Sequence record: ON075799
Direction: 5' to 3' (one strand)
Source: Escherichia phage vB_EcoM_TH18
DNA length: 64,000 nucleotides
The notes below the pieces were generated by a model. That model was not told the DNA's origin and made no database searches. It saw only the letters and a list, made by a program, of their open reading frames with translations. Of the stretch, positions 6,254 to 43,260 are shown piece by piece. The first letter of the stretch is position 1; the number at the start of each line of letters is the position of its first letter. A program made the translations under genes and the position numbers.

Positions 6254-6460
6254 TTAAACTATTCCAAAAGCCTTGACACCACGCTCGTATTCTGCTACTG
6301 CAAGCTCATGAGGAGAAAGGTCACATGAGGCATCCTTGCAAAGACCGACTTCGATGTAATGTTCTTCTAGTCCATCAAGGATATCTGGCTCCCACGCTTT
6401 TTTCATGTCTGGATGGACTGATGCACGATTTCTATCGTACTTCGCTACGAGATTTCTCAA
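6254..6460 (-). CDS. hypothetical protein (68 aa)
   Basis: Small ORF just downstream of the NAMPT gene on the same strand. Confidence 0.35.
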   Translation of the reverse strand: MRNLVAKYDRNRASVHPDMKKAWEPDILDGLEEHYIEVGLCKDASCDLSPHELAVAEYERGVKAFGIV

Positions 6461-6513: not shown

Positions 6514-8229
6514 TTAAAGCTGTGATAAGGCTCTTTGGCGAATTTCTTCAAGATCCTCATCCACAAGCAGCTTACCATTAACAAAAACTGTTCTAAGCTC
6601 GTTATCATGGTCAGATACTTGGTTAATACCAAGATTATCTACCAGCTTCAACTCGCCATCATCACCACGAATAACTTTAACAAAACCTTTCGCAGATTTC
6701 TTCCCAAGATCAGTCTTAGGCTCTTTTACGACCATTACTTGTCTGCCATCAATCACAGCACCAGTAGCTTTTACAGCCATCCCAAGAGAATCACGGGTTG
6801 TATATTGCGTTGTATAAGACCCTACACCAAACACAATGTTACTGGAAGCAAACCCTCGTTCTTCAAGGCGCTCAAAGATCTCTTTAGCACGGGAGATTGT
6901 GATAGAGTCTCCGTAGATTAAACCAACATGGCTATCAAGAACTTTGTAACCCAAAGAGTTTACACTACCACCAAAGATTTCCCACAAGCATTGTACAGCA
7001 CCCTTAACTTCCTCTTTTGTCAGATAATTTGTAAATTCATCACCTGTCAAAGATTTCCAATCTACGAGGTTGCCTTCCGAATCTCGCATCCATGAAGTGT
7101 CTCTGGACATCTCGTATAAAGTGACATATTTGCCATTTTTAAACAGCACAGCATCCATGTCACAGCACTGCCCCGTTGCCCATTCTTCCTGAGAGCACAC
7201 GCGATAACCAGCAATGATGTGCTCTGGGATCCCACTGTCAGGTCGGAAGACCAGCTTGCCATCACGAGACATAATCTCATCTTTCAGGATTTTTGCTGCC
7301 TGTGTAATGATTGCCCAAAAATCATAGCTGTCAGCGACGTATGAAGCATAACCTGATGGGAAAATCTCTGTCACATAACGCTTTAAGAACTCAACTTCAG
7401 CACGAAAACGTGCTTCATCAAGCGGCATATCAGGATTTTCCTGCTGGATACGCTCAACAATAAAACCAATGTTCGTTGTCGCTACGCTATGCTCAGATGC
7501 GGGAATAGACCCAGCAACAAAGCGACCTTTCATGTTGTAATAGCGATTTGCGTAAACAATCGCTGGAATTGTATCTGTGCCCATTGAGCTAATCAGTTGC
7601 CCAAATTCGCTCTGTGCTGCGTCATGTGTTCCAGCTTCACCACGGTATGCAAAACAATGGTTCTGGAAAGGAACATGATCGTTGTTATCACATGTTTTCT
7701 TTGCCCACAGTTCTGATAGTTTACGGTATTGCCAGAAAGTCGTTGCCGTGGTAATTGTCTTCCAAGTCTCCGATGAGATCACGCTCTCAAGGAAGTTCGG
7801 CAGCCAGTAAAAATCAGGATGCGTGTTCTGAATCGTGAACATGGGAACCTGAACAGGAACAAGAGTTCCTTCAGGCAAAGCCCTAATTTCAATTGGGAGA
7901 TAACCAAGGTCATGCAATTTCTCAAAACCCCAAGTTTCAACAGCATCCTTCCCAATGCTCAAATCACAAATCTCTTTGTAATCCTGAATCGCCTTTTCTT
8001 TCGGTAAAGCGAAGAAATTATTATTAAACATGTCGATCAGGAACCACTTGATAAATCCCTGAAGACCTGCAAACATCACACGATGGTCATCATCTGCAAA
8101 GTGTACAAAGTGTTTCACATTGCGTGGGGTCATGTTGTCTTGAACAAACTGTGAACGTCTATCGTACATCGAGATGTGACTTGGTTTATAAAAATCTGCG
8201 AACAGCAATGGACTTTCTTTGTGAAGCAT
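6514..8229 (-). CDS. nadV: nicotinamide phosphoribosyltransferase (NAMPT/NadV-like)
   Basis: 571-aa ORF; remembered NAMPT-family signatures including the RPDSG motif and GSYT segment. Confidence 0.8.
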   Translation of the reverse strand: MLHKESPLLFADFYKPSHISMYDRRSQFVQDNMTPRNVKHFVHFADDDHRVMFAGLQGFIKWFLIDMFNNNFFALPKEKAIQDYKEICDLSIGKDAVETWGFEKLHDLGYLPIEIRALPEGTLVPVQVPMFTIQNTHPDFYWLPNFLESVISSETWKTITTATTFWQYRKLSELWAKKTCDNNDHVPFQNHCFAYRGEAGTHDAAQSEFGQLISSMGTDTIPAIVYANRYYNMKGRFVAGSIPASEHSVATTNIGFIVERIQQENPDMPLDEARFRAEVEFLKRYVTEIFPSGYASYVADSYDFWAIITQAAKILKDEIMSRDGKLVFRPDSGIPEHIIAGYRVCSQEEWATGQCCDMDAVLFKNGKYVTLYEMSRDTSWMRDSEGNLVDWKSLTGDEFTNYLTKEEVKGAVQCLWEIFGGSVNSLGYKVLDSHVGLIYGDSITISRAKEIFERLEERGFASSNIVFGVGSYTTQYTTRDSLGMAVKATGAVIDGRQVMVVKEPKTDLGKKSAKGFVKVIRGDDGELKLVDNLGINQVSDHDNELRTVFVNGKLLVDEDLEEIRQRALSQL

Positions 8230-12182: not shown

Positions 12183-13013
12183 ATGACAAGTATTTTACAC
12201 ACGACAGGTATTTTACCACACTATCAGAAGGAATATTCTTTCCCTGATTTATCTGGGGATATGTTGCAAATATACGACAAAGTGCAAGGCGAAGTGTCGG
12301 AGCTACAATTTAGTTCAGACCCTGATGATGAGCAAGAGTTTGATAAACAGATTTGTCGTGTAGAAAACGAGCTTATAGAGCTACAATCATTAGCCAAATC
12401 AACAGATATCGAAGACTTAAGGCGACACGTTGAGAATCTTGAAAATTTAGTGTTCGGGCTTTCGCAAGCTATTATAAACATTGGTGAAATTGCTAAAATT
12501 GCCTCTGACAAGTTGCCAGACAACACAGAAGATATTGAAGAAGCGTTGCAGAATATCTGCTATGAAGGAAGTTCTGCTCTCGGTTGTGAATGTAATCTAG
12601 GAAATGCTCTTGAAGAGCGTGGGTGGAACCTGTTCCAAAAAACTTTTGTTTATCGTGTTATTGGTGGTGAGTTTCCTCGGCTCATACAACTTAATGCCCT
12701 TTTTGGAAACAGCCAGGGTGATAATATTGCATTAGGTATTGATGGCTGGTTCTGTTTAAGAGGTAAAGAATTAGCATTTTGTTGTGGCGATGATGTGTTA
12801 ATTCTCAATGCTTATAAACCAGGTGTTGAAATAACAACAAAATTAAATGGTAAGTCCACTAAATTTCACACCAGAGAGTTGGAAGATATTTTCATGGACA
12901 TATTTGATCCTACAGAAGACGAAATTCTTATGTATGAAATGACCAGTGGAAAAAGATATGATATTTTGTCGTGGAGAAATATTTTTGGCAAGAAGAGAAA
13001 GCCTGTAGCGTGA
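12183..13013 (+). CDS. hypothetical protein (276 aa)
   Basis: Long ORF, no recognisable motif. Confidence 0.55.
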   Translation: MTSILHTTGILPHYQKEYSFPDLSGDMLQIYDKVQGEVSELQFSSDPDDEQEFDKQICRVENELIELQSLAKSTDIEDLRRHVENLENLVFGLSQAIINIGEIAKIASDKLPDNTEDIEEALQNICYEGSSALGCECNLGNALEERGWNLFQKTFVYRVIGGEFPRLIQLNALFGNSQGDNIALGIDGWFCLRGKELAFCCGDDVLILNAYKPGVEITTKLNGKSTKFHTRELEDIFMDIFDPTEDEILMYEMTSGKRYDILSWRNIFGKKRKPVA

Positions 13014-13036
13014 TATTTTATCACTGATATTTGTTT

Positions 13037-13064
13037 TCCCTGTGATATTTTTGTCACAGGGAAA
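13037..13064. repeat. 10-bp-stem hairpin ttccctgtga / tcacagggaa
   Basis: Perfect inverted repeat immediately after the 12183-13013 gene. Confidence 0.5.
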
Positions 13065-13273
13065 GTTTCAATAGTGGATATTTTCTTGATACTTTAAATT
13101 CCTACCAGAAATTTAAATTCTGTAAATTTAGAAAACTATTACTTATAGGCGTTTCGACACAATTTTGTTATGAAAGCCTTGTTTTTATATAAAAACCTGT
13201 TTTAGCATGGGTGGTAGGATCACACTCCATACTACCTTTATTCCTACAGATGAGCATCTCCATGTTCGAAAAC

Positions 13274-13458
13274 TCGGTTCTCGATCGAAAATTCATTTTC
13301 CAGATCGTATTTGCTCCTTACGGAGAAAATTTTTTAGGGCTACAAGTTTCAGTTCTCGATCGGTTTTTCGATTTCAAAATCGTATTTGTTTTTTCTTGCG
13401 AAATTTTTCGCACGCTCAGTTCTCGATCGAGTTTTCAAAATCGAAATCGTATTTGCTC
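13274..13458. repeat. iteron-like direct repeats (three units of about 42 bp containing GTTCTCGATCG ... ATCGTATTTG)
   Basis: Three imperfect direct repeats at about 13274, 13350 and 13417, plus a tgcgaaa/tttcgca palindrome between the second and third. Confidence 0.6.
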
Positions 13459-13860
13459 TATAGTGCGAAAAAATTTTTATGGGTATCATAATTCTATCAC
13501 ACACTTAAACGCAAAGCAACATAAAAATTTTTGTTGAATGATAATCATTCTCATTTGCAGAATGACAGGTAGGATCAGTGTCTTATCCTCCCCCGTTGAC
13601 CATCGTCGCCGTAGTTTGAAGTTTATAGCCGTTCTCGGCTTATCTCTTTGTTAGAGATAGATTACCATAATTGATAAAGAAAGCAAGCGTTAATTGTAAT
13701 CTTTACGTTTCTTTACAAATTTATTTTAGACAAACTACCGGCGATCGACCTTCCAACCAGCGCCCTGGTATGTTAGCCCCGCCTTTACGCCGTGGGGATG
13801 GCGTTGCCTCTTCTGTATGTTAGGCATTATAAGCCCAATCCCTGGGCTTGTCAAACATTT

Positions 13861-14124
13861 TTATTTATTTTCTTGCCAGGTTAGGACACCTAACCAGAAA
13901 TGGCAATCACCTTTCGCCCATTGTGGTATATTGCTTTCTTTCCCACCTTCCCGCGCCCAGGAATAACCGCCCGTGTAACTTTGTAATTGATAACTATCCT
14001 CGACCTTATAATCTGACAGGTTGAGAACTGTTTCTACCTTTAAGCCTGTTGCGCTCGCTACCTGGTGGATAGTTCCCCCTTGCCAGCCTAACGCGTGCAT
14101 AAGGTGCATTGTGGTAGTGGTCAT
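13861..14124 (-). CDS. hypothetical protein (87 aa), possible helix-turn-helix regulator, divergently transcribed
   Basis: AGAGGA ribosome-binding site; own sigma70-like promoter; segment GTIHQVASATGLKVETV weakly resembles a helix-turn-helix. Confidence 0.35.
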   Translation of the reverse strand: MTTTTMHLMHALGWQGGTIHQVASATGLKVETVLNLSDYKVEDSYQLQSYTGGYSWAREGGKESNIPQWAKGDCHFWLGVLTWQENK

Positions 14125-14156
14125 TTTTTCTATTCCTCTGTTAGTTGGTTGTCAGA

Positions 14157-14185
14157 ATTGTATCTATAACCAACCAGGTTAGCAA
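14157..14185 (-). promoter_or_regulatory. sigma70-like promoter (TTGCTA-17-TACAAT) for gene 13861-14124
   Basis: -35 and -10 hexamers with 17-bp spacer on the minus strand. Confidence 0.5.
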
Positions 14186-14220
14186 GATAAATAAAAGAGA
14201 AAAATTTTTTAAAAATACTA

Positions 14221-14249
14221 TTGACAGCTAGATAGTATAGGTCTACTAT
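14221..14249 (+). promoter_or_regulatory. sigma70 promoter (TTGACA-17-TACTAT) with AT-rich upstream element
   Basis: Consensus -35, 17-bp spacer; the upstream A/T tract is nearly identical to the one at 19246-19263. Confidence 0.6.
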
Positions 14250-14303
14250 GTGCACATCAAGGCGATACACCGCCACCAACCAACCTAAAAGGGGTAAATC
14301 AAT

Positions 14304-14927
14304 ATGAAAACCATTGTTAACGCTGAGAATGTATCTTTCGATAAGTTGAACGACGCACAAAAAGAAAAAGCCATTGATCTTATTCGTGAGCGTGAAAGAG
14401 AAAGCGCCGATAATTTCTTTGCGGATAGTGTCATTGAAGACTATAAGAATGACATTTTACCAGAGTACGGGATCGATGACGCGGTTATCTATTGGTCAGG
14501 ATTCTGGTCGCAAGGCGACGGCGCATCTATCAGCACTGATCGCGTGGATATTGAAAAATTTTTAAGAAAAGTTAAATCTTTAACAAAATTTAGAGGTATC
14601 CGCAAACTATTTGATCTTGGTGAATATAGTCAGTTATACGCAAGCATTGAGCGGGATAATTACAGCCGCTACCATCATGAAAATACTGTTTCCGGTTACG
14701 TTGAAACTATGTATTGTGGTGATTTAACGGCAAAACAGGAAGATCTAGCCAATCAGCTTGAAAACTTGTTAACTGAAACGATCCGCGATCTGTCTTGTAA
14801 ACTTTACAGAGATTTAGAATCAGCCTATGATGACCAGTTTACAGATGAAGCCATCACCGAATCAATTGAAGCCAATGATTATCGTTTTGATATTGATGAA
14901 GATGGAGAAGTTTACGCTATCGCTTAA
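14304..14927 (+). CDS. hypothetical acidic protein (207 aa)
   Basis: Ribosome-binding site AAAGGGGTAAAT; strongly D/E-rich. Confidence 0.6.
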   Translation: MKTIVNAENVSFDKLNDAQKEKAIDLIRERERESADNFFADSVIEDYKNDILPEYGIDDAVIYWSGFWSQGDGASISTDRVDIEKFLRKVKSLTKFRGIRKLFDLGEYSQLYASIERDNYSRYHHENTVSGYVETMYCGDLTAKQEDLANQLENLLTETIRDLSCKLYRDLESAYDDQFTDEAITESIEANDYRFDIDEDGEVYAIA

Positions 14928-20964: not shown

Positions 20965-21354
20965 ATGCGTAACCTGGTTCATGTTTCCAACGTTGAAAAA
21001 TTCCAATCTTTACAGGCTATCGTAAACGATACAGCGCCTTTTATCGTTAAAGGCTTGATTGCCAGAATGCAACAGAAAAAACCTGAAATCTGGGCTAATT
21101 ATTGCCTTGATAATGATGATCAGGCTGCCGCTTTCATGGTTGGCGAACTGCTGGGAAGTGTAGGGAACATGCTACCGGAAAACATCGCAGAAGAGATCAC
21201 CTACCGTTATAATATGGCGATAACTTATCAGGAAGTCGCACAATTTAACCTGATGGATGACGACGAACAACAGGATCAGGAAATTTTCTGGGAGTATGCC
21301 GACCGCCAAGCCGTTTTTGATGAGCGGTTAGAGATGTACTATAACGAATGGTAA
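20965..21354 (+). CDS. hypothetical acidic protein (129 aa)
   Basis: Promoter TTGACA-17-TATTAT at 20883-20911; ribosome-binding site TAAGAGGTAAAT. Confidence 0.55.
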   Translation: MRNLVHVSNVEKFQSLQAIVNDTAPFIVKGLIARMQQKKPEIWANYCLDNDDQAAAFMVGELLGSVGNMLPENIAEEITYRYNMAITYQEVAQFNLMDDDEQQDQEIFWEYADRQAVFDERLEMYYNEW

Positions 21355-41871: not shown

Positions 41872-42120
41872 TCCCGCACCACTACGTGCTGCTGCATGTC
41901 ACCATGCAGACCAGACCATATCTTCATGCTTAAAGCATGTCTGCCGTTTGGGGTGTCATCAGCTTACACTCTACATCCCTACATTCATCAGGATTGGTCG
42001 TTAGGCATTTACGGTTGATACCGATTTAGCACGGGATTCCCTCCATAGAGGATTCCCCCGTTTAGGCAGATTTTACATGAGCAGTTATAGTTTACCCATG
42101 CTTGTAACACGCCCGTCTGA
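41845..42120 (-). other. intervening sequence A in nrdD (about 275 nt, no ORF); candidate group I intron
   Basis: Lies between the motifs GDPNYD...KKVTGS (exon 1) and MCRSFL (exon 2); stops in all frames; boundaries approximate. Confidence 0.45.
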
Positions 42121-43260
42121 AGAACCTGTTACCTTTTTATTCAACGGTACAGATATGAAATCTGGATAAATCCTTTCAACACAACACTCCATGGCTAATT
42201 GCTTTAAGTCGTAGTTGGGATCGCCAGGTTTCATGTTTACACCATCTTCCAAGAAGAAGATAACTTTTGGAAAAACAGGTGTGACTTTGTCTTTGCCAAG
42301 TCCGTTTTTGTGAACAAGAAGATAATTCTTTGTAATCATTCTCCCAAAATAGGAAGTATCAAGCCCAAGACTCAAGGTGATAAATGGGCATTGACCGTTA
42401 GCACTCATCAAGGTATTTACCTGATAAAGCAATGTCTGCATAGCATCGTAAACATCTTTTTCCGTCATCTGCATAGCTACACCTTCTGGGTCTGGCAGCC
42501 ATTGCTCCTGACAAAATTTTAGATTTTTATCGTAACTTGCCTTGGCATATTGTTTTAATCCTTCATCAATATGGGTGTATGACTGACCACCATATTGAAC
42601 CGAAGAAACTGATTGGGATATCTGGCTAAGAATGGTACAGGCAACACCTATCGATTTCGGCTTTTCTATTTTTGCATTGCCAATTTTAAAACCGTTCTCC
42701 AACATATCCCTATAATTTACAAGACTGCAATTAGTTAATGGGCTTATCAAATAATCTAAGTCATGTATATGACCATAACCATTTGTATGCCATTCAGCCA
42801 ATTCTTTTGGTAGAATTTGAGTTAGTGAGACGTGCTTGCTAAGGATACCCGCGAGAAGATCACGATGGCTACTAACCACCCCACTTGGTTTATTAGCGTT
42901 TTCTTTAGTAAATTCATCGGCAGTTTGTTCTAAGAATCCCGTAATATCTGCAAACAGTTTTCCTTTACCTTCCCTAACGTTATCACGCGTTTTACGATAT
43001 TCAATATACGCCCGTGCAGCGTTCTTGAGGTCAAGATCCATTAGTGAATCTTCCACAATGCGGTGAATATCACAAACAGCCACTTTCTCTTGCGGTGGTT
43101 CTGATTTTTCCAGAGTTTCATAGGCTTGCTCGCCAACTGCACACGCCAGAGGATATGATTTCTCACCATAACCAGCAGCAATTAAAGCGGCTTCTGCCGC
43201 TTTAATAACTTTCACACCATCATAATCTTCTTCACGCCCATCACGTTTAACAACTTTCAT
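42085..43260 (-). CDS. nrdD: NrdD, N-terminal segment (exon 1, ATP-cone plus catalytic core start)
   Basis: N-terminal MKVVKRDGREEDYD ATP-cone-like start; GDPNYD motif near the end. Confidence 0.75.
   Translation of the reverse strand: MKVVKRDGREEDYDGVKVIKAAEAALIAAGYGEKSYPLACAVGEQAYETLEKSEPPQEKVAVCDIHRIVEDSLMDLDLKNAARAYIEYRKTRDNVREGKGKLFADITGFLEQTADEFTKENANKPSGVVSSHRDLLAGILSKHVSLTQILPKELAEWHTNGYGHIHDLDYLISPLTNCSLVNYRDMLENGFKIGNAKIEKPKSIGVACTILSQISQSVSSVQYGGQSYTHIDEGLKQYAKASYDKNLKFCQEQWLPDPEGVAMQMTEKDVYDAMQTLLYQVNTLMSANGQCPFITLSLGLDTSYFGRMITKNYLLVHKNGLGKDKVTPVFPKVIFFLEDGVNMKPGDPNYDLKQLAMECCVERIYPDFISVPLNKKVTGSSDGRVTSMGKL

Follow-up and report, generated by a model that had tools for sequence, protein, structure and literature searches.

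A conserved non-coding locus with a predicted Fur operator, opposing promoters and a triple repeat array in rV5-like and phi92-like phages

The DNA analysed here, referred to as the window, comprises 64,000 nucleotides of Escherichia phage vB_EcoM_TH18 (ON075799). Between ~12.96 and 13.86 kb it contains a non-coding locus, ancestral to two subfamilies of virulent phages of enterobacteria, which comparison with related phages shows to be genuine and strongly conserved and which appears not to have been described before. The parts of this locus are of known kinds, namely a predicted Fur operator, convergent sigma-70 promoters, a covarying element and a triple repeat array, while their combination is new. 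By its motifs, the locus is built for host proteins (RNA polymerase and Fur) and not for the small gene that neighbours it. It is tentatively interpreted, with slightly less than even confidence, as a regulatory and non-coding RNA hub for the early gene module in the rV5-like and phi92-like phages. An earlier reading of the same letters, termed the original prediction below, had described the region as an iteron-like repeat array with a lone divergently transcribed gene, resembling a plasmid-like origin or a small inserted element, and had overlooked the Fur box, the perfect minus-strand promoter and the covarying structure of the GC-rich stretch.

Conservation of the locus among related phages

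The window represents Avunavirus phage DNA, the 1.5 kb around the locus being 100% identical to three partial Escherichia phage records and ~94% identical to Escherichia phage Av-05 (Avunavirus, Vequintavirinae), with an identity to the latter of 97% for the non-coding part alone. The interval equivalent to 13014-13860 (~850 bases) is without an annotated gene in Av-05. Distant BLAST searches recovered parts of the locus from ~350 phage records, encompassing Avunavirus, Seunavirus (PVP-SE1), Mydovirus (KB57), Certrevirus (CR3, PhiTE), Henunavirus, Vequintavirus (rV5) and a Serratia phage, as well as the Stephanstirmvirinae (phi92, Phapecoctavirus). The DNA identity of the individual segments (Table 1) to six relatives (PVP-SE1, KB57, CR3, the Serratia phage, phi92 and Hena1) is 61-74% for the repeats, 75-97% for the segment with promoter P2 and the Fur box (90-97% for KB57, CR3, the Serratia phage and phi92) and 77-91% for segments D and E. 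Similarity to the same six phages is undetectable for the left spacer, segment C and the flanking open reading frames (ORFs), save for short parts of the upstream ORF in PVP-SE1 (60%, over a third of the length) and KB57 (69%). The 276-amino acid (aa) protein encoded by this upstream ORF shares 38% and 26% amino acid identity with its counterparts in PVP-SE1 and KB57, respectively, and the proteins occupying its position in Certrevirus and the Serratia phage bear no recognisable relation to it.

Comparison with related phages, as proposed alongside the original prediction, reveals that the 13.0-14.2 kb region is not an insertion and is present in every relative examined. The suggestion of a small inserted element fails because the locus occurs in ~350 related phage records and outlasts the less conserved genes around it, and the combination of presence/absence polymorphism with a conserved flanking target duplication that marks a mobile element was not observed among the relatives examined. 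A host origin was likewise rejected. BLAST of the phi92 stretch corresponding to the Fur boxes, C, D and E against 5,426 E. coli genomes returned no match, while an exact-pattern scan for E in 596 Gb of bacterial genomes returned a single one, in a 4-kb contig of a metagenome-assembled genome. The supposed relationship to plasmids finds no counterpart in PLSDB, where no plasmid carries the locus and the only match is to a 40-nt Fur-box segment (CP057073.1, 17383-17422, 90% identity). This record, an E. coli 'plasmid' of 137,565 bp, has the same match and the size of the rV5-like genomes, and is possibly a misfiled phage genome.

Scans for tRNA genes and for Rfam families, at both gathering and permissive thresholds, found nothing in the locus, and no Rfam 15 family reaches half its gathering score in 12950-14350 (all E-values >=0.39). 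Within the collection of papers searched, there was no description of the locus and no report of Fur boxes in virulent phages. The rV5 genome paper draws the region as an unexplained 'non-coding' box and was unable to define an origin (PMC3606486).

Table 1. Features of the non-coding locus and the adjacent small gene (positions in the window)
Feature	Position	Strand	Description
Four TGATATTT boxes	12959, 13011, 13025, 13043 (span 12959-13050)	+	Left border
Hairpin	Arms 13035-13045 / 13054-13064		11 bp, 100% complementary, weak T tail, after upstream gene
Left spacer	13065-13264		AT-rich, 31.5% GC; unconserved outside Avunavirus
Three iteron-like repeat units	13265-13480; units at 13265, 13340, 13407		One family, 65-73% identical over 71 nt
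Repeat cores	13280-13311, 13355-13386, 13422-13453		GGTTCTCGATCG-N18-CGTATTTG
Promoter-like P2	13491-13519	-	TTGCTT-N17-TG-a-TAGAAT, extended -10; points into repeats
Promoter-like site around Fur box	13534-13563	+	TTGAAT (13534-13539)-N18-CAGAAT (13558-13563)
Fur box TGATAATCATTCTCA	13539-13553	+	14/15 of 7-1-7 Fur motif
Segment C	13570-13699		Variable between lineages
Segment D	13700-13719		Two TCTTTAC boxes 10 bp apart (TCTTTACgttTCTTTACAAA), 21% GC
Element E	13735-13819		Conserved structured element, GC-rich
E hairpin	13754-13772		Bulge on 3' arm
E short helix	13777-13782 / 13792-13797
E candidate crossing helix	13787-13791 / 13800-13804		Would form H-type pseudoknot; invariant
Promoter P_E	13826-13854	-	TTGACA-N17-TATAAT, 12/12 sigma-70 consensus
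87-aa ORF	13861-14124	-	Real gene, phrog_19316; motifs LGWQGGT, FWLG
Divergent promoter-like pair	14185-14157, 14221-14249	-, +	Promoter scan

Anatomy of the locus

Leftward sigma-70 promoters of the consensus type, preceded by A/T tracts, run against the direction of the gene module in the locus and are aimed at three evenly spaced bipartite repeats. The strongest of these promoters, P_E, starts at the edge of element E, with its predicted start (~13819) coinciding exactly with the beginning of this conserved block. An A/T tract (AAATAAAAATG) lies upstream of P_E, and the spacer of the promoter forms a hairpin (13831-13837 / 13843-13849). The P_E hexamers are kept in the relatives, including diverged ones, with spacers that vary, and early promoters of this class, with UP element, have been published for Certrevirus (PMC7344957). 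A second leftward promoter-like site, P2, is preceded by a AAAAATTTTT tract (13523-13532). It falls under the scan threshold in the window because its -35 hexamer matches at only 3/6 positions, and its counterparts in the same place are stronger in PVP-SE1 (TTGACA-18-GAAAAT) and KB57 (TTGACT-17-GATACT) and weaker in the Serratia phage.

Element E corresponds to the GC-richer stretch that had been noted after the repeats (61% GC versus 40% for the window) and contains an invariant CTACCGGCGAT..ACCTT. Diverged copies were retrieved from viral metagenome contigs by a pattern search for the invariant 5' part, and among these the hairpin and the short helix of E show compensatory changes (CCCC/GGGG, CCAG/CTGG, CCAA/TTGG and CCAG/TTGG). 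In the resulting alignment 91.6% of the cells are paired, six pairs display changes on both sides, and the covariation score is 0.225, as against 0.074 when shuffled (0/500) and 0.03-0.09 in slid controls (maximum 0.088). A covariance model built on two helices identifies a single copy in the window (13735-13808, 84.8 bits) and none in the rV5 locus. On these comparative grounds E is a covarying structured motif without an Rfam match, and one that is new to RNA databases. Coding through E was rejected, since indels of 2, 4 and 6 nt in its hairpin break the reading frame. E also mimics or pairs with the 16S rRNA 3' end no better than shuffled sequences do (p 0.3-0.76). A second, diverged copy of E occurs in P7Pc (1322-1437, L010 numbering) and Ro1 (6302-6420, L026 numbering), each with its own TTGACA-17-CATAAT minus-strand promoter and lacking the CACCTTCC segment. 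The two copies in Ro1 have a minus-strand ORF (start ~7013) inserted between them.

The Fur box was assessed against a 7-1-7 consensus (TGATAATnATTATCA) and a 19-mer (GATAATGATAATCATTATC). Its agreement with the classical 19-mer is 15/19 by reading, and a pattern search within three mismatches of the latter gave no match; in PVP-SE1 a perfect 9-1-9 palindrome stands in the same place. The box fills the spacer of the rightward TTGAAT-N18-CAGAAT promoter-like site, and both hexamers are kept together with the box in PVP-SE1, EspYZU08, CR3, the Serratia phage, Hena1 and rV5. The TTGAAT hexamer is also kept in Av-05 (-10 TAGAAT) and KB57 (-10 CTGAAT), while the Stephanstirmvirinae have GAGAAT at the -10 position with a different -35. 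The relatives have between one and five Fur boxes: KB57, rV5 and Certrevirus each have two, TSP7_1 has three and phi92 has five. The array in phi92, of five Fur-box-like palindromes within ~115 bp (2329-2445, L007 numbering), is the densest among them. An ORF starting in the Fur box was rejected as coding, as it stops after seven codons in KB57. A second 14/15 match to the 7-1-7 motif occurs elsewhere in the window (21108-21122, plus strand, TGATAATGATGATCA).

Segment C contains a hairpin (AGGAT, 13571-13575 / ATCCT, 13585-13589), a plus-strand terminator-like hairpin with a T-rich tail (13627-13640) and a weak minus-strand promoter-like site, TTGCTT (13686-13681)-N16-TAATCT (13664-13659). Its equivalents in the relatives carry a CGGTG(A/T)TTGTCTC motif and, at their end, a good minus-strand promoter, the start of which faces the Fur-box promoter at a distance of ~40 bp. 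Segment D, which is conserved in nearly all E-bearing relatives and degenerate in the Serratia phage, is located just upstream of the -35 hexamer of this segment C promoter in the relatives. The module composed of the Fur box and C is present twice in rV5, which is without E yet retains this duplicated module. Together with the second E copies of P7Pc and Ro1, this arrangement points to promoter-plus-E and Fur-box-plus-C units that behave as self-contained duplicable modules, in the manner of small genes.

The three repeats form one family and lie close to the positions (~13274, 13350 and 13417) at which direct repeats had been described in the original prediction. The core CTCGATCG-N18-CGTATT matches three times without mismatch (13280, 13355 and 13422), and the only other match in the 64 kb has three mismatches. 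The units are spaced 75 and 67 bp from start to start, with an A/T tract of the GAAAAAATTTTT (A6T5) type after each core, these tracts being phased. The repeat region has a GC content of 35% and contains four GATC sites, a 4.6-fold enrichment. The tgcgaaa/tttcgca palindrome reported previously is present at ~13398-13413, and the description of the array as iteron-like, unrelated to clustered regularly interspaced short palindromic repeats (CRISPR) and set in a non-coding locus is borne out. The repeats are, moreover, conserved in relatives rather than absent or unconserved: three copies of the CTCGATC type occur in Av-05, PVP-SE1, KB57, EspYZU08, CR3, P7Pc, KaOmega and the Serratia phage, two full copies and a partial one in rV5 and three ACT(C/T)GA-type units in Hena1. 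Three units of unrelated sequence occupy the same place in phi92, where they are spaced 67 and 75 bp apart, as opposed to 75 and 67 bp in the window.

The boxes of the repeats are read in different frames, and the spacer between them shows no compensatory pairing, two points in favour of protein binding sites acting as DNA rather than of a protein or RNA product. The three repeats are likewise without RNA-type covariation. The 94-aa and 108-aa ORFs that span the repeats are attributed to base composition, with one or two plus-strand frames being open in every relative and the boxes out of frame with one another. By the same comparative standard, coding is excluded for the repeats, C and E. A role of the repeat motif as a general phage promoter was rejected, as the motif is confined to this locus within the 64 kb.

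Candidate functions of the locus

Under the proposed hub, host RNA polymerase would fire leftward early in infection from P_E, the segment C promoter and P2, generating short non-coding RNAs directed toward the repeats. In an iron-replete host Fur-Fe2+ would sit on its box and the rightward promoter would be silent, while in an iron-starved host this promoter would fire, with its transcript being antisense to the leftward RNAs and the polymerases colliding. Through antisense pairing and collision under iron control, the balance between sense and antisense RNAs would therefore report the iron status of the host. The repeats would bind a lineage-specific phage protein that sets the fate of the transcripts or makes use of them. 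A further-reaching version, which is considered distinctly unlikely to hold, is that two subfamilies of virulent phages read the host iron status directly via Fur, with a Fur-gated promoter opposed to constitutive early promoters choosing between sense and antisense structured RNAs and coupling an early step, possibly origin firing at the repeats, to iron, while the multiplied boxes might drain Fur from the host regulon.

Several known systems share parts of this anatomy. A Fur box over a sigma-70 promoter, here a putative one, with a non-coding structured region downstream is also a feature of the Fur-repressed ryhB gene and of Fur-regulated genes of temperate phages; here, however, there is no canonical U-tail terminator, the phage is virulent and the box occurs in up to five copies. 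No sequence similarity to RyhB is apparent by eye. The temperate-phage genes under Fur control include stx1 and the sitABCD genes on lambdoid prophages (PMC6969025). The face-to-face switches of phages 186 and P2 (pR-pL and Pe-Pc) also have convergent starts tens of bp apart, one of which is operator-controlled. They differ in employing a phage repressor rather than a host regulator and in belonging to temperate phages, and the locus has no obvious protein output nearby. A conserved folded element which begins at +1 of a strong early promoter is likewise found in the put sites of HK022, although at the present locus that strand has no genes further downstream on which antitermination could act. 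PhiTE, of the same subfamily, expresses a functional non-coding RNA, pseudo-ToxI (PMC3475682). Element E differs from this RNA in not being a tandem repeat and, rather than forming head-to-tail repeats of ~36 nt as in ToxI-type loci, the repeat units lie 67-75 bp apart and are 65-73% identical. A pseudo-ToxI or type III antitoxin was rejected, with no match of at least 24/36 to the 36-mer in any rotation being found in the 8.9 kb around the PhiTE copy of the locus.

A number of observations weigh against the hub. The evidence for it is drawn entirely from motifs and comparison. The rightward Fur-box promoter scores 8/12, under the scan threshold, and the leftward segment C promoter is weak in the window, with 3/6 matches in each hexamer. 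No canonical intrinsic terminator bounds the putative RNAs in the scan, and no RNA model explains the three repeats. The folding energy of E is no better than that of shuffled sequences on either strand (z -0.61 and +0.36), and its alignment was fitted to the structure model and is made up of related sequences. The strand evidence for E also conflicts, with the conserved promoter implying a minus-strand RNA and the G.U pattern favouring the plus strand; owing to one near-invariant G.U column, the helices are 91.6% canonical on the plus strand versus 85.2% on the minus strand.

The main rival explanation, a replication origin or replication-control region, shares most of its anatomy with the hub and is not mutually exclusive with it; it is regarded as a real possibility, albeit an unlikely one. 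The repeats would in this case be iterons for a phage initiator and the A/T tracts an unwinding region. Transcription from the leftward promoters would activate initiation or prime it, as in the T7 primary origin, T4 oriF/oriG and ColE1 RNA II, and the facing Fur-controlled promoter would provide an RNA I-like antisense brake tying replication to iron supply. Three regular direct repeats unique to the locus, phased A6T5 tracts and GATC enrichment are all consistent with an origin, as are the several promoters pointing into the repeats and the non-coding gap that all relatives examined keep at this position; for the rV5-like phages no origin has been defined (PMC3606486). The count of three and the ~67-75 bp spacing are furthermore kept in phi92 although the repeat sequence has been replaced, the pattern expected if iterons co-evolve with their initiator. 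Iteron origins (lambda ori, T4 oriE, P1 oriR and those of plasmids) similarly combine at least three direct repeats at one locus with A/T tracts and enriched GATC, and retain their array architecture across lineages with differing repeat sequences.

A linked initiator, a defining feature of iteron origins, is however missing: none of the flanking genes has a domain of the Rep, O or DnaA type, and the ORF next to the repeats varies among the relatives. The boxes are bipartite and their 67-75 bp period is far longer than the ~20 bp of classical iteron arrays, no DnaA box (TTATCCACA) occurs within one mismatch in 12951-14260, the turn in GC skew lies at ~10 kb and tracks gene orientation, and, as mentioned above, no plasmid relatives were found. 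The resemblance to transcript-dependent origins (T7 primary, T4 oriF/oriG and ColE1 RNA II/RNA I) lies in tandem strong promoters directed into AT-rich repeats, a structured 5' RNA domain and a convergent promoter which would make an antisense RNA. On the other hand, the RNA strand of E is only mildly G-rich (29 G versus 23 C), E and C behave as duplicable RNA modules with E being dispensed with in rV5, and an antisense promoter with predicted host Fur control is found in none of these origins.

A Fur decoy is deemed improbable. One to five high-affinity sites per genome, present in hundreds of replicated copies, would titrate host Fur in trans, and iron uptake and RyhB would be derepressed, feeding the iron-dependent ribonucleotide reductase of the phage. 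Titration of Fur by multicopy Fur boxes is established behaviour and forms the logic of the laboratory Fur titration assay. The number of boxes varies between lineages while their position is fixed, a single operator being enough for promoter control, and few pieces of the locus are as well conserved as the box. The conservation of the promoter hexamers along with the box in most relatives nevertheless points to a role in cis, and the locus in the window has one box only.

Still less probable is a pac site, in which the GATC-bearing repeats would be bound by the small terminase subunit as in P1 pac. Terminal redundancy and circular permutation have been reported for PVP-SE1 and PhiTE, and a pac site must therefore exist somewhere in their genomes (PMC3475682), while several database records begin or end near the locus. 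The locus is, however, part of the early module, the flanks that were examined contain no terminase gene, and the clustering of record ends is weak. These ends were rejected as physical termini, as the one record checked has an 80-bp end overlap that looks like an assembly artefact in repeated DNA. This record, PQ002170.1, has the 80-bp repeat annotated as attL/attR at both ends of a virulent Seunavirus-like genome, and is filed under Demerecviridae, a taxonomy that looks misassigned.

The interpretation given in the original prediction, a small inserted element or plasmid-like origin with an 87-aa initiator or regulator, is scarcely tenable: an iteron-like array does lie beside a lone divergently transcribed small gene and between two copies of a 10-nt direct repeat, but the locus is ancestral to two subfamilies and has no plasmid relatives, the right-hand 10-mer is absent from Av-05, and the ORF, whose product has no DNA-binding fold match, is replaced or missing where the repeats are kept and is therefore no conserved partner to them. 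An origin-type role as such is covered by the main rival above.

The locus is relevant to phage therapy and biocontrol, for which the rV5-like, PVP-SE1-like and phi92/phAPEC8-like phages are broad-host-range candidates whose origin and early regulation are undefined. Where non-coding islands outlast the proteins beside them, they indicate functions that depend on invariant host machinery. If a virulent phage does have a conserved Fur operator, its infection would be tuned to iron limitation, which is normal in an infected animal, and such tuning would bear directly on phage efficacy in vivo.

Borders, the adjacent small gene and other features of the window

The TGATATTT boxes of the left border overlap the end of the gene for the 276-aa protein (stop codon 13011-13013) and the hairpin, and four of the eight occurrences of this motif in the 64 kb fall inside 92 bp. 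Two to four GATATTT boxes are found at the same border in PVP-SE1, KB57, TSP7_1, phi92, rV5 and PhiTE, that is, in every lineage read. The hairpin, previously given a 10-bp stem at 13037-13064, is a perfect 11-bp structure (13035-13064) with a stem one pair shorter in Av-05. It was not flagged in the terminator scan; plus-strand transcription of the upstream genes probably ends at it.

Both copies of the GGTAGGATCA 10-mer which had been thought to bracket the array exist, at 13213-13222 and 13568, 2-4 nt from the positions given originally (13211 and 13564). The structural meaning attached to them does not hold, since Av-05 reads GACAGGGGCG at the right-hand site, with five clustered substitutions in surroundings that are 97% identical, and a target duplication was rejected on account of this missing copy. 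The change between 13568-13577 and Av-05 ~6669-6678 (L001 numbering) makes the 10-mer identical to the copy at 13213, and alters the downstream pairing to AGGAT/ATCCT instead of GGGG/CCCC. From the alignment, the difference between GACAGGGGCG and GGTAGGATCA looks like a short conversion patch.

The minus-strand ORF to the right of P_E was correctly recognised as a genuine gene, with the LGWQGGT and FWLG motifs being invariant in its family and the AlphaFold model reaching a predicted local distance difference test (pLDDT) score of 97. It is also the only minus-strand gene in the plus-strand module, as annotated in Av-05. The weak helix-turn-helix resemblance claimed for its product is not supported by any profile or fold match to a family of this kind. 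Promoter-like sites were found on both strands of the region at 14157-14249, where divergent promoters had been proposed: TTGCTA-17-TACAAT on the minus strand is in line with the 87-aa gene and TTGACA-17-TACTAT on the plus strand with the plus-strand gene module, such that the former is predicted to serve the 87-aa gene and the latter to restart the module.

The slot occupied by the 87-aa gene contains an unrelated 61-aa ORF in PVP-SE1 and KB57 and two further unrelated 69-aa ORFs in the Serratia phage and KP13-16. It is empty in CR3, KaOmega and P7Pc (the Certrevirus set), Hena1 and rV5, where the non-coding elements are kept. As the gene is replaced or missing where the repeats stay, it is not a dedicated initiator or regulator of these repeats and is, on this distribution, interchangeable cargo. 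The variable slot beside E is a defined hotspot of small accessory genes. Members of the family (GWQGGTIHQ) also occur in a distant phage contig, in an ordinary co-directional early cluster of small genes.

Two features elsewhere in the window are also of note. A group I catalytic intron (Rfam RF00028, 79.8 bits) is located at 41892-42132 on the minus strand and presumably interrupts a phage gene; group I introns have been reported in the terminase, polymerase and nrd genes of related Certrevirus phages (PMC7344957). Fifteen tRNA genes are encoded on the minus strand between 18 and 5604, which ARAGORN assigns to three tRNA-Ser and one each of 12 other specificities.

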